From contig CAYVTR010000002.1 of NCBI GenBank assembly GCA_964454905.1, positions 6,803 through 70,802 of the forward strand: a stretch of 64,000 bases of DNA, written 5' to 3'. Made by a program: the position numbers and the translations under genes. This document shows, piece after piece, positions 32,706 to 48,073 of this stretch (within the stretch, counting starts at the first letter, position 1; the number at the start of each line of letters is the position of its first letter). The notes below the pieces were generated by a model, which was given only the letters and a program-made list of their open reading frames with translations, was not told the origin of the DNA and did not search any database. The DNA is from an uncultured Woeseia sp. (GTDB lineage: Bacteria > Pseudomonadota > Gammaproteobacteria > Steroidobacterales > UBA11654).

Positions 32706-33401
32706 ATGTCCTTAAGGGTTATTGGTGCTGGATTTGGAAGAACTGGAACGCTTTCATTAAAAGTTGCACTTGAAAAGCTTGGCTTTGGACCGTGTCATCA
32801 CATGAAGGAAGTGATGAAAAATCAAGACCAAACAGAATGGTTCCACAGAGCATCAAAAGGTAAGAAAGTTGATTGGCATAAGGTGTTTGAGAAATATCAA
32901 TCTGCTGTGGATTGGCCTGCTGCTGCTTATTATCAGGAATTAGCTAATGAATTTCCTGATGCAAAAATAGTGTTGGGTGTCAGAGATGTTGATGCTTGGT
33001 ATCAGAGCGTTAGCGAAACAATTTATACAGTGGTACCTAACTTCCCGAAATGGCTAAGATTGATTTTACCGAGAGCTAATAAAGTAATGGATATGATTGA
33101 TAGAACAATTTGGATCGGTGAATTTTCAGGACGTTTTGAAGATAAAGAGTTTGCTGTTGATGTTTTCAATAAACACATTGAATTAGTGAAGACAGTTTTT
33201 CCTGAGGAAAGGCTGCTGATTCATTCAGCCAAGGATGGATGGCAACCATTGTGTGATTTTCTAGGAGTACCAGTTCCAGATGAACCGTATCCATGGCTTA
33301 ATGAATCTATTAGTTTTAAACGAAATTTGAGAATCATCAAAGCTGTAAAATGGATGCCTGTAGTTCTAGTGATCATCTTATTACTATGGCTTCTCTACTG
33401 A
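32706..33401 (+). CDS. sulfotransferase-family protein (Sulfotransfer_4-like) with a C-terminal membrane anchor
   Basis: The N-terminal P-loop-like segment is VIGAGFGRTGTLSLKVALEKLGFGPCHHMKEV. The C-terminal hydrophobic tail is WMPVVLVIILLLWLLY. Confidence 0.6.
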   Translation: MSLRVIGAGFGRTGTLSLKVALEKLGFGPCHHMKEVMKNQDQTEWFHRASKGKKVDWHKVFEKYQSAVDWPAAAYYQELANEFPDAKIVLGVRDVDAWYQSVSETIYTVVPNFPKWLRLILPRANKVMDMIDRTIWIGEFSGRFEDKEFAVDVFNKHIELVKTVFPEERLLIHSAKDGWQPLCDFLGVPVPDEPYPWLNESISFKRNLRIIKAVKWMPVVLVIILLLWLLY

Positions 33402-33542: not shown

Positions 33543-34145
33543 TTAGGGTTTTCTATGAAAATAAATTGATAGCTTATAGAGAATTGGGGTCATCAACAAC
33601 CAGGGTATTTGACTTTGCAGACTTATGGTTCTGTCATTAAAATAGAATAAGACTGGATTGAACCATGGCCCTGTTGGGGCGAAAGGTGCCCATGAGAGAT
33701 TTTTTCCTACAGCCAGTTGATCGTAATACAGAAACATCTCAACAAAAATATTCTGACCTATACACAAAATTAACAGGATCAAGAACGCCTGCCAACTCCA
33801 GCTATCAAGTATTGACTGCTCTTTGGCCAATAATTTAGATGTAATGAAGAGCCCCCCGAGACAAACTGTGCCTGCATCACCTAAGGAGTTCATTAACCAG
33901 TTGATATTTTTTGGAATAAAATGATTCAGTATTTCAGATCTTCGTATATCAACAGGATCGCCCGAGACCCAACCATAGGTAAACCATAACTCCCATCCCA
34001 ATGCACAGATCAGGAAAGAATAGATATAAATTTTTAGTATTGATGTCGGTAGTTCATTTCTTCTTTTCAGAGTCAGAAGTACGATAATAGGAATAAGAAC
34101 ACTCAAATAAACCACAACAATAATTCTTAATTCAGCAAAAGTCAT
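33543..34145 (-). CDS. hypothetical integral membrane protein (~5-6 TM)
   Basis: Support comes from the hydrophobicity pattern only. Confidence 0.5.
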   Translation of the reverse strand: MTFAELRIIVVVYLSVLIPIIVLLTLKRRNELPTSILKIYIYSFLICALGWELWFTYGWVSGDPVDIRRSEILNHFIPKNINWLMNSLGDAGTVCLGGLFITSKLLAKEQSILDSWSWQAFLILLILCIGQNIFVEMFLYYDQLAVGKNLSWAPFAPTGPWFNPVLFYFNDRTISLQSQIPWLLMTPILYKLSIYFHRKP

Positions 34146-34217: not shown

Positions 34218-35588
34218 TTAAATAGATCTCAAATACCACTCGAAGTCTTTATTGCTGATTTGCGAGGCAAAGCGATCCAATTCACAACGCCTTGATCTTA
34301 AGAACAGATCACTGTATCCATTACTCAGATATTCATTTAAGACGCTGGCATTTTCAAAAGCATCCAATGCCTTATCCCATTTAACAGGCAATGTAATCTC
34401 AGGGTCTATGACTTCTCCTTCAGCGATCATTTTTGGAGGAGTAATCTGATTTTTTAATCCGTAATGTATTCCTGCAAGAACGCAAGCCATCACTAAATAA
34501 GGGTTAGCATCAGCGCCTGCGGCACGATGTTCAATTCTCACATTATCACTATCGGATAAAGGGATACGAATTGAGAGGTTTCGATGATTTGGACCCCAGT
34601 TTGGAGTTATGGGAGCAAAAAACCCAGGCTGAAATCGTCGGTATGAATTAGCATTTGGACAAAATATAGCCATCCCCTCTTCCATCGTTTGAGCTAGACC
34701 ACCAACAGCGTGTTCAATATTCTGATTAAAGTTTGTTTCTTGCTTAGAATCTGTTTGAAATAGAAGATCTCCTTTTTCATTTTTTAAGCTGATATGAATA
34801 TGCATCCCTGAACCTGCAGTCTTCATGAATGGTTTAGCCATAAAAGTAGCGCCCAAGCCAAATGATTTAGCAGTCTCACGAACTGCTCGTCTCAAAAGTA
34901 TGGCATGATCAGATGCCAATAACGGGTCATCGACATGATGTAGGTTGGTTTCAAATTGACCTCTTGAAAATTCTGATATTATCGTACCCGTGGGGATATT
35001 CTGTATTTCACAGGCTTTTTTTAATTGATTAAAAAATGGATCTAACTCTCTTAAATCTTCCATGGAATAGACTTGTGGTCCTTCGTCTTGAAGAATTGTG
35101 CCAGGTAAGGGTCCGTGTCTTGGATTAATGCTCAATGCATCTTTGTCTTGAATTAAATAAAACTCTAATTCAACCGCTACTGTTGCTCGAAAACCATCTG
35201 CTTCAAACTTTTCGATAACATCTCGAAGAATATTGCGACTCTCATTGGAGTAATGTTTCCCATTTCGATCAAACATGGTGATCATGGCTTGAGCTGCAGG
35301 TTTTTCCAACCAAGGAATAGAGCTCAGTGAATTGGCAACAGGTTTTGCAGTAACATCAGGGTCACCATCATCAGTTCCCAGAATTAGACCATCGATAACA
35401 TCACCGCTCGAATCAAGCAGATGTGTTGCCGCTGGAAAATTAATACCTTTACTAAACAGAGTCTTTGCTTCTGAAACATCCAAGCGTTTCCCTCGAATGA
35501 TTCCGTTCATGTCTGGAACCAGAAGCTCTAATATTTCCAGATCAGGATGAGATTCTAGAAAAAGATTTAATTCATCAAGACCGGACAT
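34218..35588 (-). CDS. glutamine synthetase-family ligase (PuuA/PauA gamma-glutamyl-polyamine synthetase-like; GmaS is an alternative)
   Basis: It is 456 aa with GS catalytic-domain blocks (GSGMHIHISL, NSYRR, RIEHRAAGADANPYL). Confidence 0.75.
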   Translation of the reverse strand: MSGLDELNLFLESHPDLEILELLVPDMNGIIRGKRLDVSEAKTLFSKGINFPAATHLLDSSGDVIDGLILGTDDGDPDVTAKPVANSLSSIPWLEKPAAQAMITMFDRNGKHYSNESRNILRDVIEKFEADGFRATVAVELEFYLIQDKDALSINPRHGPLPGTILQDEGPQVYSMEDLRELDPFFNQLKKACEIQNIPTGTIISEFSRGQFETNLHHVDDPLLASDHAILLRRAVRETAKSFGLGATFMAKPFMKTAGSGMHIHISLKNEKGDLLFQTDSKQETNFNQNIEHAVGGLAQTMEEGMAIFCPNANSYRRFQPGFFAPITPNWGPNHRNLSIRIPLSDSDNVRIEHRAAGADANPYLVMACVLAGIHYGLKNQITPPKMIAEGEVIDPEITLPVKWDKALDAFENASVLNEYLSNGYSDLFLRSRRCELDRFASQISNKDFEWYLRSI

Positions 35589-35589
35589 A

Positions 35590-36405
35590 TTATGAGCTTG
35601 TTTTATTGATAAATTCTTTTCGCCATTCCTTAGCAGCTTTCAGCCCTTTGTCTTTAAGGACTTTATAAAATGCTTTGGCTTCATCATTATCTGCTGTTTC
35701 ATATAAAACATCTGCTTCCAAGGCGTCCAATAAAGCTTCACGCATGCCTCCTATCTCTAATGTTCTATTAATCGCTCGCTTTGTGATTTCTACACAGAGA
35801 CGATCATTTGATGCTATGGTTTCAGCCATCTCCAAGCCGGCCTTATCAAGTTCTGATTCTTTGACAACTTGATTAATTAAACCCATCTCATAGATCCGCT
35901 GAGACGGTATGTTGATTCTTCCTGTCAAAAGTAATTCTTTTGCCAATTTAGGGCCTGTTAACCAAGGCAGTAACATAGCTACAATGCCACTTGCAATTGA
36001 AACCTCAGGCTCTCCAAACATCGCATTTTCTGCAGCTATAGTGACATCACAGGCTAGGGCCATCTCCATAGCGCCCCCAACACAATGCCCTTGAACGACA
36101 GCAATAGTTGGTTTTGTGGAATCCCAGAAACGCATGATGGTGTTAAAATCATCCTCTAGGGCTGCGCGCATCTCACTGTCCTCTTCCGTATCCCAAACCT
36201 CGTCATTAAGATCAAACCCAGCAGAAAATGATTTCCCTGCTCCCTTCAACACAATGGCACGAACATTGAAGTTATCCTCTGCTTCGTCCATAGCCTTGTT
36301 AATTGCTTCAAGCATGCTTGTGTTAATCGCATTTAATTTATCGGGTCTATTCAGTGTCAGCACTGCAATAGGTCCGTCGACCTCATAAATTAAGGTGTCA
36401 TTCAT
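35590..36405 (-). CDS. enoyl-CoA hydratase/isomerase (crotonase) family protein
   Basis: Supporting blocks are LTLNRPDKLNA, GAGKSFSAGFDL and GHCVGGAMEMALACD. Confidence 0.85.
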   Translation of the reverse strand: MNDTLIYEVDGPIAVLTLNRPDKLNAINTSMLEAINKAMDEAEDNFNVRAIVLKGAGKSFSAGFDLNDEVWDTEEDSEMRAALEDDFNTIMRFWDSTKPTIAVVQGHCVGGAMEMALACDVTIAAENAMFGEPEVSIASGIVAMLLPWLTGPKLAKELLLTGRINIPSQRIYEMGLINQVVKESELDKAGLEMAETIASNDRLCVEITKRAINRTLEIGGMREALLDALEADVLYETADNDEAKAFYKVLKDKGLKAAKEWRKEFINKTSS

Positions 36406-36411
36406 TAGCGC

Positions 36412-37932
36412 TTATCCCAAGTTATACCAAATGGATTTACTTTGCGTATACCCGAGCACGGATTCAAAACATGAATCTTTGGTGTTCCCAGATTGTTTGT
36501 ACCCGCCAAACTCAAAGGTCATATCACCTACGTCATAACAGTTGATATAAACCATTCCTGATTCAATAGCTCTGGCCATGTTATGAGCTCTGCTTACATT
36601 ACTTGTCCACACAGAAGCACACAGTCCATAGATGGTGTCATTAGCCATGCTTATGACTTCATCTTCAGTATCGAACGGTATAATTGAAGCCACAGGTCCG
36701 AAGATTTCCTCTCTCCCGATGGTCATGTCATTGCTAACATCTGAAAACAGAGTTGGTTCGACAAAGCATCCTGCTTCAAGGCCATCCGGTACACCGCCAC
36801 CAAATTTCAATGTGGCGCCTTCAGATTTTCCTGATTCAATAAAACCGAGCACTCTTTTTTGAGCTTGCGCGGTAACCAATGGACCCATGTTAGTCTCAGG
36901 ATCGAGTGGATCACCCGGAGTGTATGCTCCTTGTCCTTTCGCAATAAATTGATCAACAAAATCAGCATAGAGAGCGCGTTCAACATAGATCCGAGATCCA
37001 GCATTACAGACCTCGCCCATGTTCGCATAAATAGAGTCATAGGCTGTGTCAATGGCTTGATCCATATTAGGCAAGTCAGCAAAAAAGATCATGGGTGACT
37101 TACCGCCAGTTTCCAAGCTGACCTTTTTCATATTAGATTGGCCTGCATACTCAAGAAGTAATTTTCCAACCTCGGTTGATCCAGTAAAACCAATTTTTGA
37201 AACATCCGGGTGAAGCGCTAAGGCTTTACCTGCAACTTCTCCAAGACCGCTGACCACATTAAGAACCCCTGGAGGTCCGCCTGCTTCAACAAACAGTTCT
37301 GCTATCTTTATACAGGAATGTGGGGAATGCTCATCAGGTTTCAGAACCACAGAGTTTCCCGCTGCTAAAGCCGGAGCTATCTTCCATACTCCCATCAGCA
37401 GAGGATAATTCCATGGTGAAATACAACCCACCACACCGAATGGTTCTCGCACTGAAAGGTTTAATGCGCTGTCATGCGTGTTGGCAACTTTTCCATACAT
37501 TTTATCAATACACTCAGCCATGAACTTAATATTGACTGCCGAAGCCGGCACATCAACATTCAAACAATCGCTAATGGGTTTGCCCATGTTCAGGGTCTCC
37601 AAAAGTGCTAGTTCTGCAGCATTTTGATTAACAAGATCTGCAAACTTCATCATGATTCCCATGCGTTTTCTTGGGGCCATTTTCAACCAAGATCGAGCTT
37701 TATAACTTTCTTTAGCTGCGGCTACGGCCTTGTCTATATCTTTTTCTGTGCCTGCAGCAACAGTTGCACAAACTTCATTGGTTGCTGGGTTAATAACTTC
37801 GAACTTTCCACCGTCAGAGGCGTCCACATATTCACCATTAATAAAGAGTCTGCCTTCAATTTTATTTTCAGCCTCACTGGCTAGTTTGCTCCAATCCTCT
37901 TTGGAATATTTTCTTGCGCTTCTTGCGTCCAT
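36412..37932 (-). CDS. NAD(P)-dependent aldehyde dehydrogenase, PuuC/PauC-like
   Basis: The N-terminus LFINGEYVDASDGGKFEVINPATNE resembles PuuC. The catalytic blocks are ETGGKSP and EVCNAGSR. Confidence 0.8.
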   Translation of the reverse strand: MDARSARKYSKEDWSKLASEAENKIEGRLFINGEYVDASDGGKFEVINPATNEVCATVAAGTEKDIDKAVAAAKESYKARSWLKMAPRKRMGIMMKFADLVNQNAAELALLETLNMGKPISDCLNVDVPASAVNIKFMAECIDKMYGKVANTHDSALNLSVREPFGVVGCISPWNYPLLMGVWKIAPALAAGNSVVLKPDEHSPHSCIKIAELFVEAGGPPGVLNVVSGLGEVAGKALALHPDVSKIGFTGSTEVGKLLLEYAGQSNMKKVSLETGGKSPMIFFADLPNMDQAIDTAYDSIYANMGEVCNAGSRIYVERALYADFVDQFIAKGQGAYTPGDPLDPETNMGPLVTAQAQKRVLGFIESGKSEGATLKFGGGVPDGLEAGCFVEPTLFSDVSNDMTIGREEIFGPVASIIPFDTEDEVISMANDTIYGLCASVWTSNVSRAHNMARAIESGMVYINCYDVGDMTFEFGGYKQSGNTKDSCFESVLGYTQSKSIWYNLG

Positions 37933-37951
37933 TTTTAGTTCTCCTTCAATT

Positions 37952-40039
37952 TTAATTATTCCGCTGATGCAACGATATCAATGCATCAACCGCTATACAA
38001 TTATCTTTCCCCAATATTACGGGATTTATATCAATTTCACATATCTGCTCTTGGAGCTCAACTGCTATTAGTGAAAACTTTGAAGCCATCTGGGCAAATG
38101 CATCAATGTCAACTGGATCTGATCCACGATAACCTTCAAGCAGTGTTTTCATTTTCAATGATTCTATTGCTTGTTTTGCTTTATTATTAGAAAAAGGCGG
38201 CATCAGTGTCACTGCATCGTTCAATGCTTCAGCATAGTACCCTCCAAACCCAATGGTCACCATGGGTCCAAGTTGCTTATCTGTGGTCATACCTAAGATC
38301 ATTTCAACTCCATCTGATTCTATCATTGGAGCTAACAACGCATCGCCAGGTAATTTCTGCTGGAGCTTATTATAAGATTCTAGAAGCTGCTCCTCTGAGT
38401 TAATAGCGAGAAATACGCCGTCAAGCTCTGACTTATGTAAGGCCTCTTCTAGTGCTGTCTTTAAGACTAATGGAAATTGCATTGATCTTGATTGATCTAT
38501 CAACTGATCTCTATCTCCAACAATATGGCTCTCGTTGGAATTAATGCCAAGCTCAGCAAACATTTTCAATGCCTCACTCTCTCCGATATAACTTCTTTCG
38601 CTGAGATCTTGTTTATACTTTTCTAAAATTGACCGGGGTAGCTCTTCATTAATAGTACCTTTGGTTGACAAAAAGTCTCTGAAGTTATGCATGCATCGCA
38701 CTCCTGCTAAGAAAGAGTAGACGCCATCAATTATAGGCATTCCTGCATGAGTTGACTCAGCTACTAATGGATCAGAACCAGTCCCCTGACGATTGGAAAC
38801 AAGAAAAATAGGCTTACCAGATTGTTCATTAGCCTGTTTCATAAAATCAATATATTCTGGGTAGATCCTACTAATGGGTCCGCGATCCATAGCGATTGCC
38901 CCCATTGAAGCATCCGGATCCATTAACATGGCTATAATTGAATCAATCATAATCTGATCAGAATCTCCCAATCCTCTACCCCAAGCATCCAGTGGGTTAA
39001 CTGCAGGTAATCCAGGATCCAATATATCTGCCAGATTTTCGACAGTATCTTGGCTTAACTCAGCAAACTCTACGCCCTGTTGATCAGCTAAATCAATGAT
39101 CAATTGTCGTTCTCCACCTGAATCATGAATGGATACCAATCCTCCGTTTGTTAATTGATAGGGTTGTGCAAACATTATTAAAGTTGTTGCAAGTTCGTCC
39201 ATATCATTAACTCGCTGAATTCCGTATTTATTAAACAAAGCGTTATAACAATCATCTTCGCCAGACAGACCTCCAGAATGTGAAACGGTCAACTCAGCTG
39301 AGCGAGCTGTTTTACCTGTTTTTAAAATAACAATGGGAATCCTTTTTTCTATGGCTAACTCAAAAGCTTTAATCATAACCTTGGGTTTTCTAATAGTTTC
39401 CAAGAACAACCCTACGACTCTGGTGCTCGGCTGATGCAAAGCGTATTCGAGATAATCTTCAGCGCCGGTCGTTAATTCTTGGCCGGATGAAACCCCTAGA
39501 TTCAAATTGATACGCTCGTCACAATCAATAATTCCCGCAAGACCAGAGCCAGATTGACTAATTAAACAAATACCACCGGATTGATGATTAGGCCGGGTGT
39601 CAAAACCATTAGCCCAAACACTCTTTTCAATATTAAAAAAGCCCGTACCGTTTGCACCGCATAAAAGGACATTTGCGTCCTTTAATCTTGCTTCTAGTCG
39701 ATCTTTTAAAACGGGCGTGGAATCATCGTCAATTACCAACATAGATAATATAGTCATAGCCTGAACACCTGCCTTGATTGCCGCATCGACCAGCCCTTCA
39801 AGTCTTTGATCAGAAACTGCGAAAATAGCGTGCTCAACTGGTTCAGGTAAAGATTGGAAATCTGGAAAACATGGGACATCCAATACTTGGTCGTATTTTG
39901 GATTGATGCCATACAAATTACCCTCGTATCCTCCATGGAGAAGATTTTTTAATAATCTACTACCGACCCCCGCTGAGGTTGACGCGCCGACAACGGCGAT
40001 GCTTGCTGGGTTTAACAGAGGGTTTAAACGATGTGACAT
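37952..40039 (-). CDS. ADP-forming acyl-CoA synthetase (fused CoA-binding + ATP-grasp domains; acetate--CoA ligase family)
   Basis: Supporting features are LNPASIAVVGAS, a succinyl-CoA-ligase-like flavodoxin domain, a C-terminal ATP-grasp domain and a length of 695 aa. Confidence 0.75.
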   Translation of the reverse strand: MSHRLNPLLNPASIAVVGASTSAGVGSRLLKNLLHGGYEGNLYGINPKYDQVLDVPCFPDFQSLPEPVEHAIFAVSDQRLEGLVDAAIKAGVQAMTILSMLVIDDDSTPVLKDRLEARLKDANVLLCGANGTGFFNIEKSVWANGFDTRPNHQSGGICLISQSGSGLAGIIDCDERINLNLGVSSGQELTTGAEDYLEYALHQPSTRVVGLFLETIRKPKVMIKAFELAIEKRIPIVILKTGKTARSAELTVSHSGGLSGEDDCYNALFNKYGIQRVNDMDELATTLIMFAQPYQLTNGGLVSIHDSGGERQLIIDLADQQGVEFAELSQDTVENLADILDPGLPAVNPLDAWGRGLGDSDQIMIDSIIAMLMDPDASMGAIAMDRGPISRIYPEYIDFMKQANEQSGKPIFLVSNRQGTGSDPLVAESTHAGMPIIDGVYSFLAGVRCMHNFRDFLSTKGTINEELPRSILEKYKQDLSERSYIGESEALKMFAELGINSNESHIVGDRDQLIDQSRSMQFPLVLKTALEEALHKSELDGVFLAINSEEQLLESYNKLQQKLPGDALLAPMIESDGVEMILGMTTDKQLGPMVTIGFGGYYAEALNDAVTLMPPFSNNKAKQAIESLKMKTLLEGYRGSDPVDIDAFAQMASKFSLIAVELQEQICEIDINPVILGKDNCIAVDALISLHQRNN

Positions 40040-40047
40040 AAATTAGT

Positions 40048-41238
40048 CTAGTATAGTTCTGCAGGTGTTGTTCTTTTCCTGTCAGGGTCAAAGAATGGTT
40101 TAGTAACAATTGTTGCCTCTTCCATGACTTTATTCCACTCCAAGTCTTTCTGATAGTAGATCTCAGCAACAATTTTATCCTTTCCTTTTTTCCAAGGATC
40201 ATGAAGTGTAGCAAAAGCAATATTTGCTTTGGCACTGGGAGAAAACATAGCAGAAGTGACATTGCCTATTTTCTTTCCTGATTGATTATACAGATAGGAG
40301 CCTTCTGCAGGTTTGTTGCCATTAACATTAAGTTTTACAAAAGTGTATCGAGAACCCCTTTTCTTTTCTTCTAACAAGGCCTGTCTTCCATTAAAAACTG
40401 GCTTCGATAAATCCACCAACCAAGATAAACCTAATTCGAAAGGTGACCTGGTTGAGCCAGGCCTAATAGCATCCTCAGCTACCATAAAATCTTGGCCTGG
40501 GACTAGTAAGCCAGCCTCGATTCTAACTAAATCTAAGGCATCTAAACCGAATGGATGTATACCATATATTTCACCTTTATCGAATAAAACATCCCAGAAA
40601 TCTAAAGCCACTTCATTAACCATGCAAACCTCATAGCCGAGATCGCCACTGAATCCAGTTCTTGAAATCATAATCTCTTGACCCTGAAAATCATAATGTT
40701 TGATATCAAACGGTTTTAAGTGCTCAATTCCCTCAAAACCCATAGCTTTTAAAATGCTACAAGATGTTGGACCTTGAACTCCTAAACAAGCGATATCATC
40801 AGTAATTTCCTCAATCTTTACATCAAACCCAATCGCAGCTATTCCAAGATTATCAAGCTGTCTTTCTACGCATAGAAGCCAATATTCGTTCTCCCTAATA
40901 TGAAAAACAGTTCCATCATCTAGAACTTGGCCTTGCTCATCACACCAAACGACATAACCAACACGTCCAATAGCAATTTTATCCATATCTCTGGTGAAGA
41001 AACGATTCACAAACTCAGCAGCATCAGGTCCGGTTATTTTTTGCTTCACCATTGGTGTGTAATCTATAACCCCTGTCGTGTTTCTTACGGCAAAATACTC
41101 GAGATCCGTTCTAAAGTAATTTGTTGAAACTGTATAATCTTTCCATCGTGTCCATTCATTAAGGATATTCAATTCAGAGGTTCTTTCATGGAATGGGGTT
41201 TTGTAAACCGATTTCTTGTAATGATCTTGTTGCAACAT
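40048..41238 (-). CDS. GcvT-family aminomethyltransferase-like, folate-binding protein
   Basis: It shows GcvT-fold blocks (GVIDYTPM, ITGPDAAEFVNR, GVQGP, ISRTGFSGDLGYE, RIEAGL). I chose the start at MLQQDH, 1 nt after the upstream stop. Confidence 0.75.
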   Translation of the reverse strand: MLQQDHYKKSVYKTPFHERTSELNILNEWTRWKDYTVSTNYFRTDLEYFAVRNTTGVIDYTPMVKQKITGPDAAEFVNRFFTRDMDKIAIGRVGYVVWCDEQGQVLDDGTVFHIRENEYWLLCVERQLDNLGIAAIGFDVKIEEITDDIACLGVQGPTSCSILKAMGFEGIEHLKPFDIKHYDFQGQEIMISRTGFSGDLGYEVCMVNEVALDFWDVLFDKGEIYGIHPFGLDALDLVRIEAGLLVPGQDFMVAEDAIRPGSTRSPFELGLSWLVDLSKPVFNGRQALLEEKKRGSRYTFVKLNVNGNKPAEGSYLYNQSGKKIGNVTSAMFSPSAKANIAFATLHDPWKKGKDKIVAEIYYQKDLEWNKVMEEATIVTKPFFDPDRKRTTPAELY

Positions 41239-41239
41239 C

Positions 41240-42808
41240 TTATGACTCCCTACTGATGATTTCATTTGCTGCATTTCTCCCAGCAAGCCCCATCAATCCC
41301 CCACCAGGATGACAGCCAGCTCCACAAAGATATAGGGACTCAATGGGTGCCGTATATTGTGCCATCCCAGGAATAGGTCTTAACATCAAGAATTGGTCAA
41401 AAGTTAATTCTCCATGATGCCAATGACCGCCAGTTATTCCGTATTCTTTCTCAAAATCTACAGGTGACAATAACTCAGCATGCACAATTAACTTCTTGAT
41501 ACCCGGCGCCATGTTTTCTAATTGATTAAGGCAATTTTCTAGGATCTTTGGTTTTGAATCATCCCAGCCGTCTTTCAAGTGATAAGCTGTGTTATTTACG
41601 ATTGCAGATAATACATGACGACCTTTTGGTGCCAAAGTATCATCATGAATCGATGGAATAATAATCTCCATGGGTAACTCATCTGAGTATTGACCATATT
41701 TTGTAAAATCATGGGCTAATTCTAAATATTTCATACTCGGTGCATTAATGATTCTATGGCCTAGATCTTCAGGCTCAACTCCTTTAAAAACAGGCAAACC
41801 TGATAAAGCTAAATGCAGCTTAGAGGTATTACCTCGCATTCTAATATTGCTGATTTTATGGACCACAGCAGGCTCTAAATGCTTCGGTCCAACTAAACAC
41901 ATGAATGTGCTCCGTGGGTCAACTCCAGACACCACAATATCAGCTTGGGCTTTATCACCATTCTCTAAGATAAGACCTTTCACTTTATTGTCACTATCCA
42001 GATCAATTTGTTTAATTGGAGTATTCAAATGGAGAGTAACACCTGCACTCTCAGCAGCTTTTTGAAGTGCTTGCGAGTAAGCACTCATTCCACCTTTCGG
42101 AATAGCATAACTGCCTTGGACTCCATTAAGGTCACCGGTTAGTTGATGCATATAAGTAATTACACTGTTATTTGTTCTTGGCCCCATTCGATTGCCTAAC
42201 AAAGCATCAAGTGCAATGGAGCCTTTAATATGGTCATGTTCGAAATATTCATTGAGAACGTCATAAATATTAATCGCAATAAACTTCAGCATATTACTCA
42301 TAGAATCCTTGCCCATAGTTCTCAGGTTCCACCCAAGTTTCATCAGAGTTTTCAGATCTTTTCTATCCTCTGAGCCTAATCTTGGTGGTGTCGATTGATA
42401 AGTTTTTTTGAAAAATCCAGAAAGCTTTTTCATGCTGCTTCTGAATTCTTTATATTGATCTTGCTCTCTTAAAGTAATATCGTCTCCGCTGACCTTATCG
42501 TCATCAAAAATCAAGGCATTACCCTTAGGATTTATCGACACAGTTTTTAGCCCGCTGGCCGCATATGAAAGACCATGTTTCTTAAGTTGTAGAAACTTCT
42601 GAATTCCAGAATCATTTTGATGCAATAAATGGGCACCGCCTGGAACTGTATATCCGTCTGTTATTTCTCTAGTTGAAGCCATACCACCGATTTCGGAACG
42701 TGACTCATAAAGATCCACTTTAAAGCCCGCCTTAGCTAGATATGAACCACAAATTAAGCCGTTATGACCTCCTCCTATAATCGCTATATTTTTATTTTTC
42801 CTAGTCAT
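41240..42808 (-). CDS. phytoene desaturase (CrtI)-family NAD(P)/FAD-dependent oxidoreductase, paralog B
   Basis: The dinucleotide-binding N-terminus is IAIIGGGHNGLICGSYLAKAG and the C-terminus is CGAGCHPGGGLMG. The start is taken at MTRKNK. Confidence 0.75.
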   Translation of the reverse strand: MTRKNKNIAIIGGGHNGLICGSYLAKAGFKVDLYESRSEIGGMASTREITDGYTVPGGAHLLHQNDSGIQKFLQLKKHGLSYAASGLKTVSINPKGNALIFDDDKVSGDDITLREQDQYKEFRSSMKKLSGFFKKTYQSTPPRLGSEDRKDLKTLMKLGWNLRTMGKDSMSNMLKFIAINIYDVLNEYFEHDHIKGSIALDALLGNRMGPRTNNSVITYMHQLTGDLNGVQGSYAIPKGGMSAYSQALQKAAESAGVTLHLNTPIKQIDLDSDNKVKGLILENGDKAQADIVVSGVDPRSTFMCLVGPKHLEPAVVHKISNIRMRGNTSKLHLALSGLPVFKGVEPEDLGHRIINAPSMKYLELAHDFTKYGQYSDELPMEIIIPSIHDDTLAPKGRHVLSAIVNNTAYHLKDGWDDSKPKILENCLNQLENMAPGIKKLIVHAELLSPVDFEKEYGITGGHWHHGELTFDQFLMLRPIPGMAQYTAPIESLYLCGAGCHPGGGLMGLAGRNAANEIISRES

Positions 42809-44417
42809 CGTTTTCCGCTTCTGGAACAATATTCTTTCGCCTTAAATCAAACAACATCTCTCTAGCTGCATTGGCTCCAGGGGCAGCCATAACTCCGCCC
42901 CCAGGATGGGTACTAGATCCACACATGTAAAAGCCTTTTACTGGACCTCGAAATTGTGCATAACCAGGGAATGGTCTATTGAAGAACATTTGATCCATGG
43001 TTAATTCGCCTTGGAAAATATTACCTTCTGTTAAGCCAACCTCATCCTCAATGTCTTGAGGTGTTCTTATTTCTGCATGAACAATCAGGTCTTTAAAATT
43101 TGGACTGTAGGCACCTATTTGATCAATAACAGTTTTACCAAAACCTTCTCGATCTTGATCAGTCCACTCACCGGTTGCTAGTTTTGGTGGTGCGTACTGG
43201 ACAAACACTGACATATAGTGCTTACCAGGAGGTGCCATTGTTGGATCTGTCATAGTTGGAATAAGGGTGTCACAATAAGGATCTTGTGACCAACGACCAT
43301 TCTTCCAATCATCATAAGCTCTCTCGATTCTTTCCAATGAATCAATAAAATGCATATCCGCATATATAAGCGGGTTATTTTTTCCCAGAGCTGGAAACTC
43401 AGGGAGACCGTCTAGAGCAATATTTAACTTACCTGAGGACCCATTGAATTTATAATTATCAACTTGTTTGAGTAATTTTTCACTGAGATCTTGAGGGTCG
43501 AACAGATCTTGATAGGTGCGTCTAGCATCTAAATTAGATACAACATTCTTAGCATAATATTCATCGCCATTAGCTAAAACAACGCCAGTGGTTTTGCCAT
43601 TCTTAACTTGAACTTGAGTGACTTCTGCATTGGTTAGAATTTCACCTTGATGCTCCTGGAGAGCGCCTGCAAGTGCTTTGGAAACTGAGCCCATGCCGCC
43701 TCTTGCAAATCCCCAAGAACCAATACTGCCATCAACTTCTCCCATGTAATGATGCAACAAGACATAGGCAGTTCCTGGAGAATATGGACCGAGAGCGGAG
43801 CCAATAATCCCACTGCCTGATAGAGCAGCTTTAACAATATCTGACTCGAAATACTCTTCCAAGTATTCAGCCGCACTCATGGTATAAAAACGTATTGTGT
43901 CGTAAATAGTTTGTTCACCTAGCCCGTATAATCGCTTGAATAAATACATTAATTCTCCAAGGTCTTTAGGTTTGAAAGAAGTGGGATCGGGAGGTGTTCT
44001 CAGTAGCAGGGGTTTAATAAATCGACACTGTTTGGACACATCTCTACCGAATCTAACGTAAGCATCAGCATCCTTTTTAGAAAAGCGTCCGATCTCTCTT
44101 CTTTGTAAGTCATGATCGGAATAACCACCAAAAATATTTCCATCTTCCATGAAGGTCACACTACCTCCATAGGCAATAACCTGTAACCCGTGTTTTTGTA
44201 AATTTAGATCTCGATATATTTCAGGTCTTAATAAACTACAAACATAAGAACAATTTGAATAGGTCCAACCATCATGCAACTCTCGGCTCACAGCAGCACC
44301 ACCGATGTAATCATTTTTCTCTAAGACAAGCACCTTCAGACCTGACTTAGCTAAATAAGCAGCATTGGTCAAACCATTATGGCCTGCTCCGATAACTATA
44401 GCGTCATACTTATTCAA
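42801..44417 (-). CDS. phytoene desaturase (CrtI)-family NAD(P)/FAD-dependent oxidoreductase, paralog A
   Basis: The N-terminus is DAIVIGAGHNGLTNAAYLAKSG and the C-terminus is CGSSTHPGGGVM. It is paralogous to the downstream gene. Confidence 0.75.
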   Translation of the reverse strand: MNKYDAIVIGAGHNGLTNAAYLAKSGLKVLVLEKNDYIGGAAVSRELHDGWTYSNCSYVCSLLRPEIYRDLNLQKHGLQVIAYGGSVTFMEDGNIFGGYSDHDLQRREIGRFSKKDADAYVRFGRDVSKQCRFIKPLLLRTPPDPTSFKPKDLGELMYLFKRLYGLGEQTIYDTIRFYTMSAAEYLEEYFESDIVKAALSGSGIIGSALGPYSPGTAYVLLHHYMGEVDGSIGSWGFARGGMGSVSKALAGALQEHQGEILTNAEVTQVQVKNGKTTGVVLANGDEYYAKNVVSNLDARRTYQDLFDPQDLSEKLLKQVDNYKFNGSSGKLNIALDGLPEFPALGKNNPLIYADMHFIDSLERIERAYDDWKNGRWSQDPYCDTLIPTMTDPTMAPPGKHYMSVFVQYAPPKLATGEWTDQDREGFGKTVIDQIGAYSPNFKDLIVHAEIRTPQDIEDEVGLTEGNIFQGELTMDQMFFNRPFPGYAQFRGPVKGFYMCGSSTHPGGGVMAAPGANAAREMLFDLRRKNIVPEAENDD

Positions 44418-44418
44418 T

Positions 44419-45732
44419 TCATTCCCCTTCTAGTGATCTCTCAAGAGCGGCTTCAAAAGCAGTCAAAGTAGGCTGCAGTGCATCCTTAGCATGAGCTTCG
44501 CATATAAACCACGGCTCTCTCGGATCGAACTCGCATAATACCCCATCTTCGAGCAATTCTTCAGCAAGTTTTTCATAAAACGGGTAGTTCGAACCCTTGA
44601 AATCTCGTGCGTTTGTCGGTGCAGATTCAGATAAAAATAAACCGGACATTGATGGGTGACCTGTAAAGCAATGTGCAACATTGTGGTTTGACAAAATTTT
44701 ACTGAGTCCGTCTCTCAAATCAGTGCCGTATTGATTAACTGTTTCTAGAGCATTAGTGTTCTGCAGAATATCTAAGGTTTTATTGGCTGCTGAAATAGCA
44801 ACGGAATGTGCAGTAAACGTTCCCCCATGAAGAACTCCTCCATATTTAATTGAACGCATTAGTTCTTCTTTGCCACAAACGGCGGCTATTGGATAACCGT
44901 TTGCAATGGATTTAGCAAATGTGCATAAATCAGCCTCGACTCCATAAAGTTCCTGAACACCCCCTTTAGCTACTCTAAACCCGGTTTTAACTTCATCAAT
45001 TATTAAGACAACATTGTATTGATCACACAGCGAACGTACTGCATTTATATATTCTTGTGTTGCCCCAATAGAGCAACAATTTCCCAAGATGGGCTCAATA
45101 AGCAAAGCGCCTATATCGTTATGCTTTTCTTTTAGTAAATCTTCCAAACGAGAGGCGTCATTCATCGGAACAAGGTGCAAAAGCTCTCCATTATGCTTTG
45201 GTATCCCTTGGCTTGAAGAAGCCAGAACTGGAGAACCTGCAGTGGGGTCCCATTCATCCAAATCAATATCCCAAAGAACTGCATCTGAAACACCATGATA
45301 ACCACCTTCAATCATAATAAATTCATCTCTTTTAGAGTAAGCTCTTGCAACTCTTAAAGCGGCCATAACAGCTTCTGTACCTGAATTGGAATAACGAACT
45401 AATTCTGCTGAAGGAACCATGGCTGATATCTTATTCGCCACTTCATATTCCAGTTCAGTAGCAAGAGCAAAGACTCCACCAATCTCTATACCTTCTCTTG
45501 CTGCTTGATCAACTCTGGGGTCTGCGTAACCAAGGATATAAGGTCCATAGGCCAATCGATAATCGATATATTCATTATCATCTAAATCCCACAACCTGCA
45601 TCCTGATGCATGGTCTATGTATATTGTTTCATCATCTCCCCAATATCTGAAATTGGAAGTTACTCCCAACGGGAGCTTATTGATGGCTTTTTTAAAATGT
45701 TTGTTACTTTTTTCTAACGATCTTTTACTCAT
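44419..45732 (-). CDS. class III PLP-dependent aminotransferase (glutamate-1-semialdehyde aminomutase-like)
   Basis: Supporting blocks are NSGTEAVMAALRVARAY, LIIDEVKTGFRV and AKSIANG (PLP lysine region). I chose the start at MSKRSLEK. Confidence 0.8.
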   Translation of the reverse strand: MSKRSLEKSNKHFKKAINKLPLGVTSNFRYWGDDETIYIDHASGCRLWDLDDNEYIDYRLAYGPYILGYADPRVDQAAREGIEIGGVFALATELEYEVANKISAMVPSAELVRYSNSGTEAVMAALRVARAYSKRDEFIMIEGGYHGVSDAVLWDIDLDEWDPTAGSPVLASSSQGIPKHNGELLHLVPMNDASRLEDLLKEKHNDIGALLIEPILGNCCSIGATQEYINAVRSLCDQYNVVLIIDEVKTGFRVAKGGVQELYGVEADLCTFAKSIANGYPIAAVCGKEELMRSIKYGGVLHGGTFTAHSVAISAANKTLDILQNTNALETVNQYGTDLRDGLSKILSNHNVAHCFTGHPSMSGLFLSESAPTNARDFKGSNYPFYEKLAEELLEDGVLCEFDPREPWFICEAHAKDALQPTLTAFEAALERSLEGE

Positions 45733-45918: not shown

Positions 45919-46836
45919 ATGCGAAAAACATCAGACATAATTAAAGCGGTTGATACGATCTCAGTTGAGGCCAATGGGATTGAATTTGAAGTCGACACCC
46001 AGGGCGAGGGTGAGAGACTGGTGCTTTGCCTGCATGGCTGGCCCGAACATAGCATCACCTGGAGGTTTCAAATGCCCTACCTAGCGAGTTTGGGCTACCG
46101 AGTCTGGGCACCAAATCTACGAGGCTACGGAAATACCAATGCGCCCAAAGGAATGAAACATTATCAGTTAGAGATACTCATGGAGGATGTGGCAGCGCTC
46201 ATAAAGGCTTCGAATGCAAAAGAGGTAATAGTTCTAGCCCATGATTGGGGTGCTTTGATAGCATGGCATTTCGCCATGCGATATCCCGACGCCATCAATC
46301 GCCTAGTAATCTGTAATGTGCCTCATCCCGCTCCTTTTCTTAAGGCAATGACGAAGGGCTTTGAGCAACTGTTTCGATCCTGGTATGTTCTCTTCTTCCA
46401 GTTGCCTTGGTTGCCAGAAATGATATCGAGAAACATCTCGGCTGGAAGACTAATCAGAGGTGGCGCTGCTACTCGCAGGAATTATCCAGATGAAGTTGTG
46501 GCATTGTTCGATGAAAATGCATCCCGCCCTCAAAACCGAACTGCAATGATTAATTATTATCGTGCCTTACTACGCGGTGGCGGTCTTTACAGACAGTGGA
46601 AGCTTGGCTTCCCAAAGATCGAAGTGCCAACACTGATGCTTTGGGGTGAAAAGGATATTGCACTGTCGATGACTAGCACATTGGGCACAGAGGAGCATGT
46701 GGAAGATTTCAACATCCGTTATTTTAGGGGGATTTCGCACCATGTTCAGCAAGATGCTCCCGAAGAAGTTAATGCAATGCTTAATGCTTTTCTGGCAAAT
46801 GAAACAGTGCCAGAATACTTAGATATTAAGATCTAA
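45919..46836 (+). CDS. alpha/beta hydrolase, epoxide hydrolase/haloalkane dehalogenase-like
   Basis: Supporting motifs are LCLHGWPEHSITWR and the nucleophile elbow AHDWGALIAW. Confidence 0.75.
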   Translation: MRKTSDIIKAVDTISVEANGIEFEVDTQGEGERLVLCLHGWPEHSITWRFQMPYLASLGYRVWAPNLRGYGNTNAPKGMKHYQLEILMEDVAALIKASNAKEVIVLAHDWGALIAWHFAMRYPDAINRLVICNVPHPAPFLKAMTKGFEQLFRSWYVLFFQLPWLPEMISRNISAGRLIRGGAATRRNYPDEVVALFDENASRPQNRTAMINYYRALLRGGGLYRQWKLGFPKIEVPTLMLWGEKDIALSMTSTLGTEEHVEDFNIRYFRGISHHVQQDAPEEVNAMLNAFLANETVPEYLDIKI

Positions 46837-46909
46837 TTTACAATTTTTTAATAACATCTGATTTTTAATCAGAGTAATATTAGTTTTCATCAATGTTGTG
46901 GAGAAAGAC

Positions 46910-48073
46910 ATGCATATAAATTTGCCAGAAAATACTAAGCATTGGATAGCAATAGCTGAGAAGTTTCTGGAAACAACTCAACCCTGGGAGGTTGAAGCAG
47001 AGATGAATGAAGGAAAAGTTCCGGATGAAGTCGATCAAAAACACCGTCAAATGGCAATTGATTTGGGTCTATCCAGTATGGATATACCAAAAGATATTGG
47101 TGGACAACAATTAAGCAATTTAGAACAAGTGGCTGTATGGGAAGTTCTAGGAAGAAGTACTAATGCACTCACATGGTGCTTTTCAGAACCTCAAGCTTGG
47201 ATGTTGGAGGCGTGTAATCAACAGCAAATTGATAAGTACATTCTTCCTCTCATGGATGGAAGAAAACATGAGTGTTATGCGATCACAGAACCTGAATCAG
47301 GATCAGAATTGGATGTGGGCGCTACTGCAAAAAAAGTTGAAGGCGGATATATAGTCAATGGGGAAAAATGGTTTGTTACAGGTGCAAATCATGCAGACTT
47401 CTTTTTCATCCAGGCAGTTATTCAAGATGGGGAGGATAATATTGGCGATGCATTTTTCTTCTTGGACATGGATCAAGAAGGAATTGAGCATGTGAGAACA
47501 CCTCTTTTTTCTCATACTTTTGATAGTCATCATCCAATTTATAAATTCAATAATGTATTTATTCCAGAGGAGAACCTGATTGGCAATGAAGGAGATGGAA
47601 TGACCTTCTCATTAGCCTGGTTTAGAAGAGAGAGGTTAATGATTGCTGCAAGGTGCTGTGGAGCCGCAGCAAGATTAATCGAGGAAGCTACTGAATTTAG
47701 TAAAGATCGTAAAGTTAAGGGTGGCATGTTGGCTGAGCAACAGGCAATTCAATTTATGCTGGCAGACAGTGTGACAGAACTTTGGGCATCCAGATTGATG
47801 CTTTATGAAACTGCCAAAGCTCATGATCGTGGCGATGATATTAAAGCTCTACATTATCGATGTTCAGCGGTCAAATTATTCGCCTCTGAAATGGCCAATA
47901 AAGTGGCAGATCGAGTGGTACAAATTTTTGGCGGTAGAGGTTATATGAGAGAATTTACAGCTGAACGCTTCTATAGGGAACTAAGAGTTGACCGAATATG
48001 GGAAGGGACTTCTGAGATACAACGACTTATCATTGCCAGAGGTTTAATAAATAAGGGCCTGAAAAAGTTATAA
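46910..48073 (+). CDS. acyl-CoA dehydrogenase (~387 aa)
   Basis: Supporting blocks are YAITEPESGSE, GEKWFVTGA and the C-terminal GGRGYMREFTAERFYRELRVDRIWEGTSEIQ. A GGAG RBS lies 7 nt before the ATG at 46910. Confidence 0.85.
   Translation: MHINLPENTKHWIAIAEKFLETTQPWEVEAEMNEGKVPDEVDQKHRQMAIDLGLSSMDIPKDIGGQQLSNLEQVAVWEVLGRSTNALTWCFSEPQAWMLEACNQQQIDKYILPLMDGRKHECYAITEPESGSELDVGATAKKVEGGYIVNGEKWFVTGANHADFFFIQAVIQDGEDNIGDAFFFLDMDQEGIEHVRTPLFSHTFDSHHPIYKFNNVFIPEENLIGNEGDGMTFSLAWFRRERLMIAARCCGAAARLIEEATEFSKDRKVKGGMLAEQQAIQFMLADSVTELWASRLMLYETAKAHDRGDDIKALHYRCSAVKLFASEMANKVADRVVQIFGGRGYMREFTAERFYRELRVDRIWEGTSEIQRLIIARGLINKGLKKL

Follow-up and report, generated by a model that had tools for sequence, protein, structure and literature searches.

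A conserved operon pairing two CrtI-family flavoproteins with a GcvT-like folate protein in Woeseia: a candidate route for N-methylated polyamines

Layout of the locus

The 64,000-nucleotide stretch analysed here, referred to as the window, comes from an uncultured Woeseia sp. (contig CAYVTR010000002.1, positions 6,803 to 70,802) and carries eight consecutive minus-strand genes at 34218-45732 in its listing of open reading frames (ORFs). These genes encode, in order of transcription, a class III aminotransferase (AT), two paralogous flavoproteins of the CrtI family (FP1 and FP2, for flavoprotein 1 and 2), a GcvT-like folate-binding protein, a CoA ligase of the ADP-forming CoA ligase (ACD) superfamily, an aldehyde dehydrogenase (ALDH), a crotonase and a glutamine synthetase-like (GS-like) ligase. 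An earlier note on this DNA had named the flavoproteins CrtI-like A and CrtI-like B; together with the GcvT-like protein, we call them the trio. A divergent unit on the plus strand encodes an acyl-CoA dehydrogenase (ACAD) and an ABC importer with its substrate-binding protein (SBP), together with an alpha/beta hydrolase and an EamA-family transporter (Table 1). Here, we describe how this cluster is conserved and argue, at about even confidence, that it serves the breakdown of N-methylated amines.

The genes are packed closely, with spacings from the AT gene onwards of 1, -8, 1, 8, 19, 6 and 1 nt; the start of FP2 overlaps the end of FP1 by 8 nt, and the GcvT-like gene begins 1 nt past FP2. These figures use the 437-aa form of the AT, which is also the form in public gene calls; its longest ORF reaches 45786 through an alternative GTG start. 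Gene order, all spacings and the 72-nt gap to a membrane-protein ORF beyond the GS-like gene are exactly as the earlier note had given them, and Pfam upholds all of its domain assignments. At the level of named enzymes the picture is different: all scores against NCBIfam fall under the curated cut-offs, and no named enzyme has its equivalog among the eight proteins. An identical 21-kb arrangement, with 98-100% protein identity, is found on at least six independently assembled ocean metagenome contigs, and is therefore not an assembly artefact. Scans with consensus promoter and terminator models gave counts at or below the shuffled expectation and are uninformative. The Rfam scan found no riboswitch or leader near the operon; its sole match, PYLIS_3, lies inside an mttB gene elsewhere in the window.

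Table 1. Genes of the operon, of the divergent unit and of probable dispersed members in the window
Feature	Position	Strand	Remarks
Class III aminotransferase (AT), HemL/GntE-like branch	44419-45732	-	Operon gene 1; Pfam Aminotran_3, 218 bits
FP1, 538 aa, CrtI-family/flavin amine-oxidase superfamily	42801-44417	-	Pfam Amino_oxidase, DAO, NAD_binding_8
FP2, 522 aa, paralogue of FP1	41240-42808	-	Pfam Amino_oxidase, 83 bits; NAD_binding_8
Stand-alone GcvT-family folate-binding protein	40048-41238	-	Pfam GCV_T, 180 bits; GCV_T_C
ADP-forming acyl-CoA synthetase (ACD superfamily), DddX-like	37952-40039	-	Pfam CoA_binding_2, Succ_CoA_lig, ATP-grasp_5
Aminoaldehyde-type aldehyde dehydrogenase (ALDH), PuuC/BADH-like	36412-37932	-	Pfam Aldedh, 539 bits
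Crotonase/enoyl-CoA hydratase	35590-36405	-	Pfam ECH_1, 151 bits
GS-like gamma-glutamyl-amine ligase, PuuA/GlnT-like, own clade	34218-35588	-	Pfam Gln-synt_C, 286 bits
Membrane protein, 200 aa, membership doubtful	33543-34145	-	72 nt beyond GS-like gene; no Pfam or NCBIfam match
Alpha/beta hydrolase, first gene of divergent unit	45919-46836	+	Pfam Abhydrolase_1, 97 bits
Acyl-CoA dehydrogenase (ACAD), divergent unit	46898-48073	+	Pfam Acyl-CoA_dh_1, _M, _N
EamA-family transporter, lineage-specific	48103-49005	+	Pfam EamA, 131 bits
PotFGHI-type ABC importer	49020-52959	+	SBP 49020-50114; ATPase 50127-51227; permeases 51227-52150 and 52147-52959
GbcA-like Rieske oxygenase, dispersed member of the gene set	20264-21511	+	Pfam Rieske and Ring_hydroxyl_A
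DAO-family PuuB-like flavoprotein, probably a dispersed member	9143-10435	-	Pfam DAO, 229 bits

Conservation across relatives

A pattern scan of 185,579 species genomes, based on an alignment of FP1, yielded 80 loci on which the window proteins were then placed by tblastn. The synteny figures given here come from these placements; co-occurrence counts for TetR, Rieske and DAO genes come from clustered ORF calls, made with a crude caller that produces spurious antisense ORFs in high-GC relatives. More than 8000 FP1 homologues were scored, and the identical sequence of the window protein stands in 124 indexed blocks of a public collection. FP1, FP2 and the GcvT-like gene stand in register at 62 of the 63 loci with at least 3 kb of sequence downstream. 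The partners recur less uniformly: AT at 43 loci, ACAD at 38, CoA ligase at 37, PotF at 36, PotG at 33, PotH at 31, PotI at 29, GS-like ligase at 29, ALDH at 27 and crotonase at 18. The usual order is that of the window, with PotIHGF and ACAD on one strand and AT, FP1, FP2, GcvT, ligase, ALDH, crotonase and GS on the other. Such conservation, seen in 80 other genomes, far exceeds what chance would give.

Among the carriers are Woeseiaceae, Steroidobacteraceae, Halieaceae, OM182, Pseudomonadales and Lysobacterales, including the cultured genera Lentisalinibacter and Elongatibacter. The extended cluster is 42-70% identical in Woeseiaceae, Steroidobacteraceae and other Gammaproteobacteria, and its core also occurs in Rhizobiaceae and Paracoccaceae, so that the synteny reaches well beyond this genome and into the Alphaproteobacteria. 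A search of plasmid proteins found orthologues of about 60% identity in Rhizobium sp. SL42, Ensifer, Shinella, Parasedimentitalea marina and Fuscovulum ytuae. In Fuscovulum, a TetR gene is followed divergently by AT, FP1, FP2, GcvT, two Rieske genes, a polyamine SBP, an ATPase and two permeases; AT overlaps FP1 by 8 nt, FP1 overlaps FP2 by 14 nt and FP2 overlaps GcvT by 4 nt. The overlaps within the Rhizobium trio are likewise 14 and 4 nt (PGAP annotation). The Fuscovulum AT, FP1 and PotFGHI are orthologous to those of the window at 43-59% identity. Lentisalinibacter has a different order, with AT, ACD, ALDH and GS upstream of the trio.

The same comparison separates core members from local additions. 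The alpha/beta hydrolase, the EamA transporter and the 200-aa membrane protein were considered as core members and rejected, as they occur in just one or two close relatives (two related loci each for the hydrolase and EamA; only the closest relative, locus L008, for the membrane protein). The earlier note was right about the position of the membrane protein 72 nt further on; its membership of the operon is doubtful, and it looks like an add-on of this lineage. Just beyond the end of the operon, 31153-33401 on the opposite strand encodes a Sulfotransfer_4 protein and a carboxylesterase of the cholinesterase type (PF00135, 350 bits).

The flavoprotein-GcvT trio

FP1 is the most conserved gene of the cluster, at 65-95% identity across the 80 genomes (median 68%), and FP2 is much less conserved, with a median of 44% across 75 loci. 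The N-terminal dinucleotide-binding motif GGGHNG and the C-terminal motif HPGGG can be read directly in FP2. Strong conservation of one paralogue and weak conservation of the other suggests a catalytic and an auxiliary subunit. The GcvT-like protein (median identity 52% across related loci) has a full-length GCV_T domain, covering model positions 12-254 of 255. Its matches in the PDB are the glycine cleavage T-protein (151 bits) and the trimethylamine N-oxide (TMAO) demethylase Tdm (129 bits), and also dimethylglycine dehydrogenase (DMGDH) and the alpha subunit of sarcosine oxidase; in NCBIfam, it scores 236 against a cut-off of 1100 for the C-terminal domain of TMAO demethylase and 212 against 300 for the GcvT subfamily. 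A role as DmdA, the demethylase of dimethylsulfoniopropionate (DMSP), was considered and rejected, since the protein reaches just 148 bits where 410 are required and a near-threshold DmdA (404 bits) sits elsewhere in the window, at 5428-6609.

Could FP1 and FP2 be carotenoid desaturases or ketolases instead, the outcome that the earlier note had named as fatal to its proposal? CrtI (4dgk) is the best solved relative of FP1, with 83 bits only, and CrtO is the best NCBIfam model for both flavoproteins. However, the scores lie far under the curated cut-offs (CrtO, 296 for FP1 and 214 for FP2 against 1000 bits; crtI_fam TIGR02734, 135 for each against 238 bits), and the constant partners are a folate protein and genes of amine metabolism. 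Neither the annotated ORFs of the window nor the conserved neighbour families that were scanned showed a phytoene synthase, a cyclase or a geranylgeranyl diphosphate synthase. We therefore reject a carotenoid role, to which we attach next to no probability, on curated cut-offs and context.

An exhaustive phmmer search for a protein joining CrtI-like and GcvT domains returned some long matches; these are tandem GcvT duplications, a Tdm-like DUF1989-GcvT protein and an IclR-GcvT protein, and none is a relevant fusion. Finally, plasmid pLA6_002 of Paracoccaceae bacterium La 6 (locus L091, 4281-11383) carries a single CrtI-like paralogue, 38% identical to FP1 and without a GcvT partner, in an operon with an AT, a PuuC-like ALDH, an AMP-forming CoA ligase and a TIM-barrel hydrolase, adjoined by an acetylpolyamine amidohydrolase. 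This operon suggests that the flavoprotein branch of FP1 has a wider role in polyamine-derived acyl-CoA metabolism.

The Puu-like enzymes

The AT belongs to a branch close to GntE of the guanitoxin pathway (463 against a cut-off of 525 bits) and HemL (360 against 398), and its best match in the PDB is glutamate-1-semialdehyde aminomutase (238 bits). Its orthologues have a median identity of 62% over 43 loci; the Fuscovulum protein, encoded directly upstream of FP1, is 56% identical. The ALDH (median 60%, 27 loci) scores 547 against 850 for PuuC and 481 against 593 for betaine aldehyde dehydrogenase (BADH). The GS-like protein forms a separate clade, at 195 against 650 bits for gamma-glutamylputrescine synthetase (PuuA, NF045547) and 190 against 470 for type III glutamine synthetase, and its gene directly follows the trio in OM182, Halieaceae, Elongatibacter and other loci. 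The PuuB-like DAO oxidase lies far from the operon, at a distance of about 24 kb (25 kb in the earlier note); it is 44-52% identical to a DAO gene that sits within the cluster at six related loci.

The CoA ligase, ACAD and crotonase

The best PDB match of the CoA ligase is the ATP-dependent DMSP lyase DddX (7cm9; 252 bits, 28% identity), and the alignment is full length, with residues 12-690 matching 49-726. In DddX, His292 is phosphorylated, Trp391 and Phe435 are the cation-pi partners of the sulfonium, and Glu432 is the likely base for beta-elimination (PMC8163506). His254, Trp353, Phe399 and Glu395 of the window ligase align with His292, Trp391, Phe435 and Glu432, respectively. All 27 orthologues share His254 and Trp353 and have either Tyr or Phe at position 399; position 395, where the alignment is poor, is E, S, D, N, G or A, with Glu in the window protein. 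In three other solved ACD enzymes the Trp position is Ile, Val or Gly. The safe conclusion from these residues would be that the ligase binds a carboxylate with a cationic group; its likeness to DddX also suggests a cationic carboxylate as substrate, possibly with beta-elimination. A recently characterised DddX-like enzyme cleaves DMSP without an equivalent of Glu432 (PMC13543886).

No ACD ligase was found in the 29.6 kb of the Fuscovulum operon examined; instead, it carries a cupin gene of the DMSP_lyase family (PF16867, 66 bits). With this one genome, two unrelated types of DMSP-lyase enzyme are seen to go with the same core, a hint of a beta-onium-propionate intermediate. The crotonase keeps both catalytic glutamates, in the motifs GGAMEMAL and GEPE (read directly), and the ACAD keeps the catalytic-glutamate motif IWEGTSEIQ, so that both look like working CoA-ester enzymes. 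The ACAD (median identity 60%, 38 loci) is closest in NCBIfam to acryloyl-CoA reductase AcrC, with 183 bits, and to CaiA, with 165 bits, both well below cut-off.

The importer and its surroundings

Over its full length, the SBP matches Pseudomonas aeruginosa SpuD and SpuE with 305-311 bits (SpuD 3ttm, 311) and Escherichia coli PotF with 293 bits; against the PotF model it scores 317 bits, where the equivalog cut-off is 636. PGAP labels the Fuscovulum orthologue a polyamine ABC transporter substrate-binding protein, and the importer components there are 43-58% identical to those of the window. Of the residues that we take to be the putrescine contacts of PotF (W37, S38, Y40, S85, E185, W244, D247, F276, D278 and Y314), seven of ten are identical in the SBP, and E185, S38 and F276 are replaced by Asp, Ala and Trp. 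These contacts favour a diamine- or polyamine-shaped ligand over a zwitterionic betaine; that two of the changes could make room for a methylated nitrogen is speculation on our part. The earlier note had proposed a route for an N-alkylated amine, a polyamine or a betaine-type osmolyte. As the importer appears to be of the PotF/SpuD type, a betaine-type osmolyte is less likely than a polyamine, which leaves the polyamine part of the proposal favoured. The DMSP importer DmpXWV was considered as a relative of this importer and rejected; DmpX is grouped with the TMAO-binding TmoX, and its paper does not mention polyamines or PotD.

The importer genes are directly followed, at 52982-58284, by genes for a TPR-sulfotransferase of 669 aa, an AspH-like hydroxylase of 188 aa and a TonB-dependent receptor. 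Nine, six and seven related loci, respectively, OM182 and Halieaceae among them, have homologues next to the cluster, and the AspH-like homologues are about 60% identical to the window protein. Genes of these three kinds adjoin the importer in many loci, as in the window, and may form a module for the uptake of the same substrate across the outer membrane.

Genes that accompany the trio in relatives

Which other functions keep company with the trio? A Rieske oxygenase gene stands beside the importer or the trio in 32 related loci, and the dispersed Rieske gene of the window (Table 1) is about 50% identical to them; it scores 320 against a cut-off of 670 for GbcA, and the next model reaches 128 bits. 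At 31 loci a BetI-type TetR regulator occupies the place where the window has the alpha/beta hydrolase. The OM182 locus (L070) has, in this order, GS-like, Rieske, DAO, class I glutamine amidotransferase (GATase) and AT genes beside the trio and two ALDHs, which makes a complete Puu-like set. In Rhizobium, a DAO gene adjoins the gene for a Peptidase_C26 (PuuD-type)/RidA protein. Flavoproteins of the trimethylamine dehydrogenase (TMADH)/DgcA type, with Oxidored_FMN and Pyr_redox_2 domains, occur in Shinella, Parasedimentitalea and one further locus (L016). The trio thus keeps company with two themes, namely Puu-like gamma-glutamylation and the stepwise N-demethylation of quaternary, tertiary and secondary amines. 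By tblastn, no match in the window was obtained for the cupin lyase, an FMN_bind_2 protein or the TMADH-type flavoprotein.

Between the AspH-like gene and the TetR/trio genes of the OM182 locus (MED-G28, 6813-9035) lie genes for a protein of the DDAH/arginine-deiminase fold and an APC permease. The DDAH-like gene is a hint that, in OM182, methylated guanidino compounds might enter the same demethylation route.

Other features of the window

At 3669-8230 lies a DMSP demethylation module, comprising the DmdA-like GcvT paralogue mentioned above (404 against 410 bits), a 585-aa ACAD with an Acyl-CoA_dh_C domain that is DmdC-like, and a divergent BCCT transporter. A cobalamin-dependent methyltransferase island, the upstream folate island of the earlier note, occupies 10511-20225 and contains two MttB-family genes, MTHFR, a homocysteine S-methyltransferase domain, B12-binding, DUF1638 and pterin-binding proteins and a RACo activase; it resembles the aerobic MtgBCD glycine-betaine demethylation/split methionine synthase system of 2025 (PMC12478193). 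The PYLIS_3 match (11549-11648; 55.5 bits against a gathering score of 38) falls in the first MttB gene, a 517-aa ORF without an in-frame stop; rather than marking a functional recoding element, it probably reflects conservation of the mttB sequence. At 61662-62774 the window encodes a further Rieske oxygenase, which is of the vanillate-O-demethylase (VanA_C) type.

At 24220-26535, an amidohydrolase (Xaa-Pro dipeptidase-like, 454 against 500 bits) is accompanied by a divergent 315-aa protein without a family match; homologues of the amidohydrolase stand beside the trio or the ligase in five related loci, and homologues of the 315-aa protein in two. At 831-3664, HMG-CoA reductase is fused to a GHMP (mevalonate-kinase-like) kinase in a protein of 752 aa, and a NUDIX protein comes next; these are mevalonate-pathway genes in an apparent gammaproteobacterium.

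Proposed pathway

What could such an assembly of genes degrade? At about even confidence, the protein families and their conservation point to a pathway that breaks down N-methylated di- or polyamines, or cationic alkylamines much like them. The earlier note had proposed an amine or polyamine; such a substrate, bearing N-methyl groups, is backed by the match of about 310 bits between the SBP and SpuD/SpuE/PotF and by the GbcA-like Rieske oxygenases, BetI-type TetR regulators, PuuB/PuuD-like genes and TMADH-type flavoproteins of relatives. We infer the substrate, the order of the steps and the flavoprotein-GcvT complex, and base every step on protein family, gene context and conserved residues.

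The PotF/SpuD-type ABC system would import the amine, and the GbcA-like Rieske oxygenase, dispersed in the window, would remove a methyl group from a quaternary or tertiary nitrogen. Together, FP1 and FP2 may then form a heteromeric amine dehydrogenase or oxidase that oxidises the N-methyl C-N bond to an iminium, which the GcvT-like protein would trap on tetrahydrofolate (THF) to give 5,10-methylene-THF. The freed primary amine would be transaminated by the coupled HemL/GntE-like AT and the aldehyde oxidised by the PuuC/BADH-like ALDH, giving an amino acid that still has a cationic nitrogen. A terminal N-methyl group would block transamination, which would explain why the genes of the putative demethylase are coupled to the AT gene. 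The DddX-like ligase would convert the cationic amino acid into its CoA thioester, from which a C3 or C4 unit could be released in two ways: by beta-elimination to acryloyl-CoA, following the logic of DddX, and subsequent hydration by the crotonase, or by dehydrogenation through the ACAD and then hydration by the crotonase, following that of DmdC and DmdD. Either release would free a shorter amine, able to re-enter the pathway. The GS-like ligase would gamma-glutamylate a free amino group as PuuA does, and may thereby protect it or capture the released amine.

N-methyl-terminated polyamines with aminopropyl or aminobutyl repeats occur in diatom and chrysophyte biosilica and in sediments (PMC12206195). 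A more specific and rather doubtful version of the pathway would be an iterative, beta-oxidation-like shortening of such algal silica-associated long-chain N-methylated polyamines (LCPAs). Passage of the large polycation through the outer membrane would be the task of the TonB-dependent receptor, whose gene is kept next to the importer in many relatives. In each cycle, the CrtI-type flavoproteins, as a heteromeric enzyme of a new class, and the free-standing GcvT-like protein would take off the terminal N-methyl group, and the amine would be transaminated and oxidised to an N-substituted beta-alanine or gamma-aminobutyrate. After thioesterification by the DddX-like ligase, elimination or the combined action of ACAD and crotonase would clip off a C3 or C4 acyl-CoA and leave the polyamine one unit shorter.

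A number of observations weigh against catabolism of N-methylated polyamines. Some concern genes that the proposal would lead one to expect. By tblastn the window has no match to the BetI-type TetR, and no reductase partner for the Rieske oxygenase was recognised among its annotated ORFs. Nor does it match a PuuD-type amidotransferase, with the OM182 GATase and the Rhizobium Peptidase_C26 protein as tblastn queries; the earlier note had taken the absence of PuuD as a departure from the Puu pathway, which is correct within the window and does not hold as a general gap, as the gene is present in the OM182 and Rhizobium versions and missing only in this lineage. Other observations concern the enzymes. 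To our knowledge, the CrtI-family enzymes characterised so far act on C-C and not on C-N bonds. No fusion of CrtI-like and GcvT domains was found among the best 150 cluster representatives of the phmmer search, and the AlphaFold2 model of FP1, built from a 12-sequence alignment, has a pLDDT of 55.8 and is too poor to use. The ACAD has no specific assignment (183 bits at best, where 640 would be needed), and since the position of DddX Glu432 varies among ligase orthologues, the beta-elimination step is not secured. As for the substrate, the putrescine contacts of the SBP are largely those of PotF, so that unmethylated polyamines are also possible ligands, and we know of no report of N-methylated polyamines as major free solutes in seawater or soil.

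How well would other substrates account for the same genes? An onium carboxylate osmolyte (beta-alanine betaine, gamma-butyrobetaine or a DMSP-like compound) could be activated directly, as a zwitterion, by the ligase, with elimination or Cai/Dmd-like processing after CoA activation and with demethylation of the methylamine groups, whether released or residual, by the Rieske oxygenase and the trio. The DddX-like ligase with its conserved cation-pi Trp and aromatic residue fits this well, as do the BetI-type repressors and GbcA-like Rieske oxygenases of relatives, the DMSP_lyase-family cupin gene of Fuscovulum, the weak likeness of the ACAD to CaiA and AcrC, and a window rich in osmolyte demethylation genes (DmdA-like, BCCT and MtgBCD-like). 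However, we consider such a substrate unlikely, for the conserved importer resembles the PotF/SpuD type and not the ProX, OpuA or BCCT type, and Puu-like DAO, GATase and AT genes lie beside the trio in OM182 and Rhizobium. Moreover, a betaine needs neither an AT nor an aminoaldehyde dehydrogenase nor a GS-like ligase, all three of which require a primary amine. A primary amine is supplied if the cluster is a variant Puu/Pau pathway for putrescine, spermidine or norspermidine, in which FP1 and FP2 take the place of PuuB or a polyamine oxidase, with a structural or other non-C1 role for the GcvT-like protein. PuuA-, PuuC- and PotF-like genes are indeed present, the SBP keeps most of the presumed putrescine contacts, FP1 and FP2 belong to the Pfam family Amino_oxidase that includes polyamine oxidases, and the single CrtI-like paralogue of the Paracoccaceae plasmid stands beside an acetylpolyamine amidohydrolase with no GcvT gene. 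This variant would leave the tight coupling of a full-length folate-binding domain to the flavoproteins at 62 of 63 loci without a purpose, and the recurrent GbcA-like Rieske, TMADH-type and BetI-type genes without a role for unmethylated polyamines. OM182 and Rhizobium moreover have a PuuB-like DAO besides the trio, and we regard the variant as distinctly unlikely.

A smaller substrate would be methylamine itself. In this short-cut the GS-like ligase would make gamma-glutamylmethylamide, as GmaS does, and the trio would oxidise its N-methyl group to methylene-THF and leave glutamine; all other genes would serve only to set methylamine free from larger molecules. The smallest recurrent set, consisting of the trio, the GS-like gene and the Rieske gene (in OM182, Halieaceae, Elongatibacter and loci L045, L052, L061, L075 and L078), matches this scheme, and the GS-like protein falls in neither the PuuA nor the GlnT equivalog. 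Against it, alphaproteobacterial trios come with AT, Rieske and PotF-importer genes and, in the stretches examined, without a GS-like gene; it is the AT and not the GS-like gene that is translationally coupled to FP1, and methylamine needs no polyamine-type importer. The short-cut seems quite improbable to us. The cluster could also have no common substrate at all and be a mosaic of independent Puu-like, demethylase and CoA units. Modules do recombine, as the Lentisalinibacter order shows, many loci have only the trio with Rieske and TetR genes, and several members are dispersed in the window. Yet gaps of 1-19 nt and one overlap tie the eight genes together, and the re-association of the same partners in different orders across two proteobacterial classes is a signature of functional coupling, which makes a mosaic very improbable. 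The breakdown of N-methylated di- or polyamines is thus the reading that we retain. It refines the proposal of the earlier note, whose predictions, as far as computation could address them, were all borne out.

Significance

The component families and the proposed functions, namely polyamine catabolism, folate-coupled demethylation and CoA-dependent elimination, are known; their combination and the enzyme architecture would be new. In the full-text literature searched, the coverage of which is incomplete, we came across neither the cluster nor a pairing of CrtI-like and GcvT proteins. If our proposal is true, two CrtI-family flavoproteins with a separate GcvT protein would be a new architecture for folate-coupled oxidative N-demethylation, and a branch of the phytoene dehydrogenase-like (COG1233) proteins would gain its first amine-related role. 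COG1233 proteins have been counted as carotenoid genes in ocean surveys (e.g. PMC4373125). The cluster would also provide a CoA-dependent route for polyamine carbon, linking the cycling of polyamine nitrogen with the folate C1 pool, and a link to an acryloyl-CoA chemistry so far known only from DMSP, which would extend the DddX enzyme type beyond sulfur. Because the cluster is common (Woeseiaceae, Steroidobacteraceae, OM182, Halieaceae, Rhizobiaceae and Paracoccaceae), a defined substrate would annotate a sizeable part of marine and soil nitrogen metabolism that is so far unexplained. Cultured carriers exist, among them Shinella zoogloeoides ATCC 19623, Lentisalinibacter sediminis, Parasedimentitalea marina W43 and Fuscovulum ytuae, so that the question is directly testable.

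Comparison with known systems

With the Puu pathway of E. coli (PuuP/A/B/C/D/E) and the Pau/Spu pathway of Pseudomonas, the window shares a GS-like ligase, an aminoaldehyde dehydrogenase, a class III AT and a PotF/SpuD-like importer; in relatives, the likeness extends to PuuB-like DAO and PuuD-like amidotransferase genes. Neither pathway has the folate-linked flavoprotein trio, the Rieske oxygenase or the CoA branch of the window. Glycine betaine catabolism through GbcAB, DgcAB and Sox under BetI control has counterparts in the GbcA-like Rieske, BetI-type TetR and TMADH/DgcA-type flavoproteins of relatives. However, the Rieske oxygenase of the window scores far below the GbcA cut-off, the importer is polyamine-type, and the AT, ALDH and CoA chemistry are foreign to that route.

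On the CoA side, the ligase resembles DddX (PDB 7cm9; eLife 2021, PMC8163506) in a three-domain architecture over its full length, with CoA-binding, flavodoxin-like and ATP-grasp parts and the phospho-histidine. The surroundings differ, as DddX clusters with BCCT, dddB and dddC genes and the window ligase stands in an amine operon with a polyamine importer. The DmdA-B-C-D pathway of DMSP demethylation is alike in its logic, with a GcvT-family demethylase, a CoA ligase, an ACAD and a crotonase that releases the heteroatom group. In contrast, the window ligase is ADP-forming and not AMP-forming, and the AT, the GS-like ligase and the flavoproteins have no Dmd counterpart.

Finally, FP1 and FP2 share the FAD-binding fold, the overall length and the N- and C-terminal flavin motifs of the CrtI/CrtO family, whereas they fall below every curated cut-off and are always paired with each other and with the folate protein. 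That pairing recalls the folate-coupled N-demethylases (SoxBDAG, dimethylglycine dehydrogenase/oxidase and Tdm), in which a redox or cleavage module works together with a folate domain of the GcvT type, on which the C1 unit is captured, and it is the folate domains of these enzymes that the GcvT-like protein matches best. Two Rossmann-type subunits and a folate domain parallel the arrangement of SoxB, SoxA-N and SoxA-C in heterotetrameric sarcosine oxidase. The differences are that the flavoproteins of the trio belong to the CrtI/COG1233 branch and not to the DAO family, that the folate protein is a separate polypeptide in the window, and that its complex with the flavoproteins is a putative one. 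As proposed, the trio would correspond to sarcosine oxidase, dimethylglycine dehydrogenase and TMAO demethylase in split form, with CrtI-family parts.

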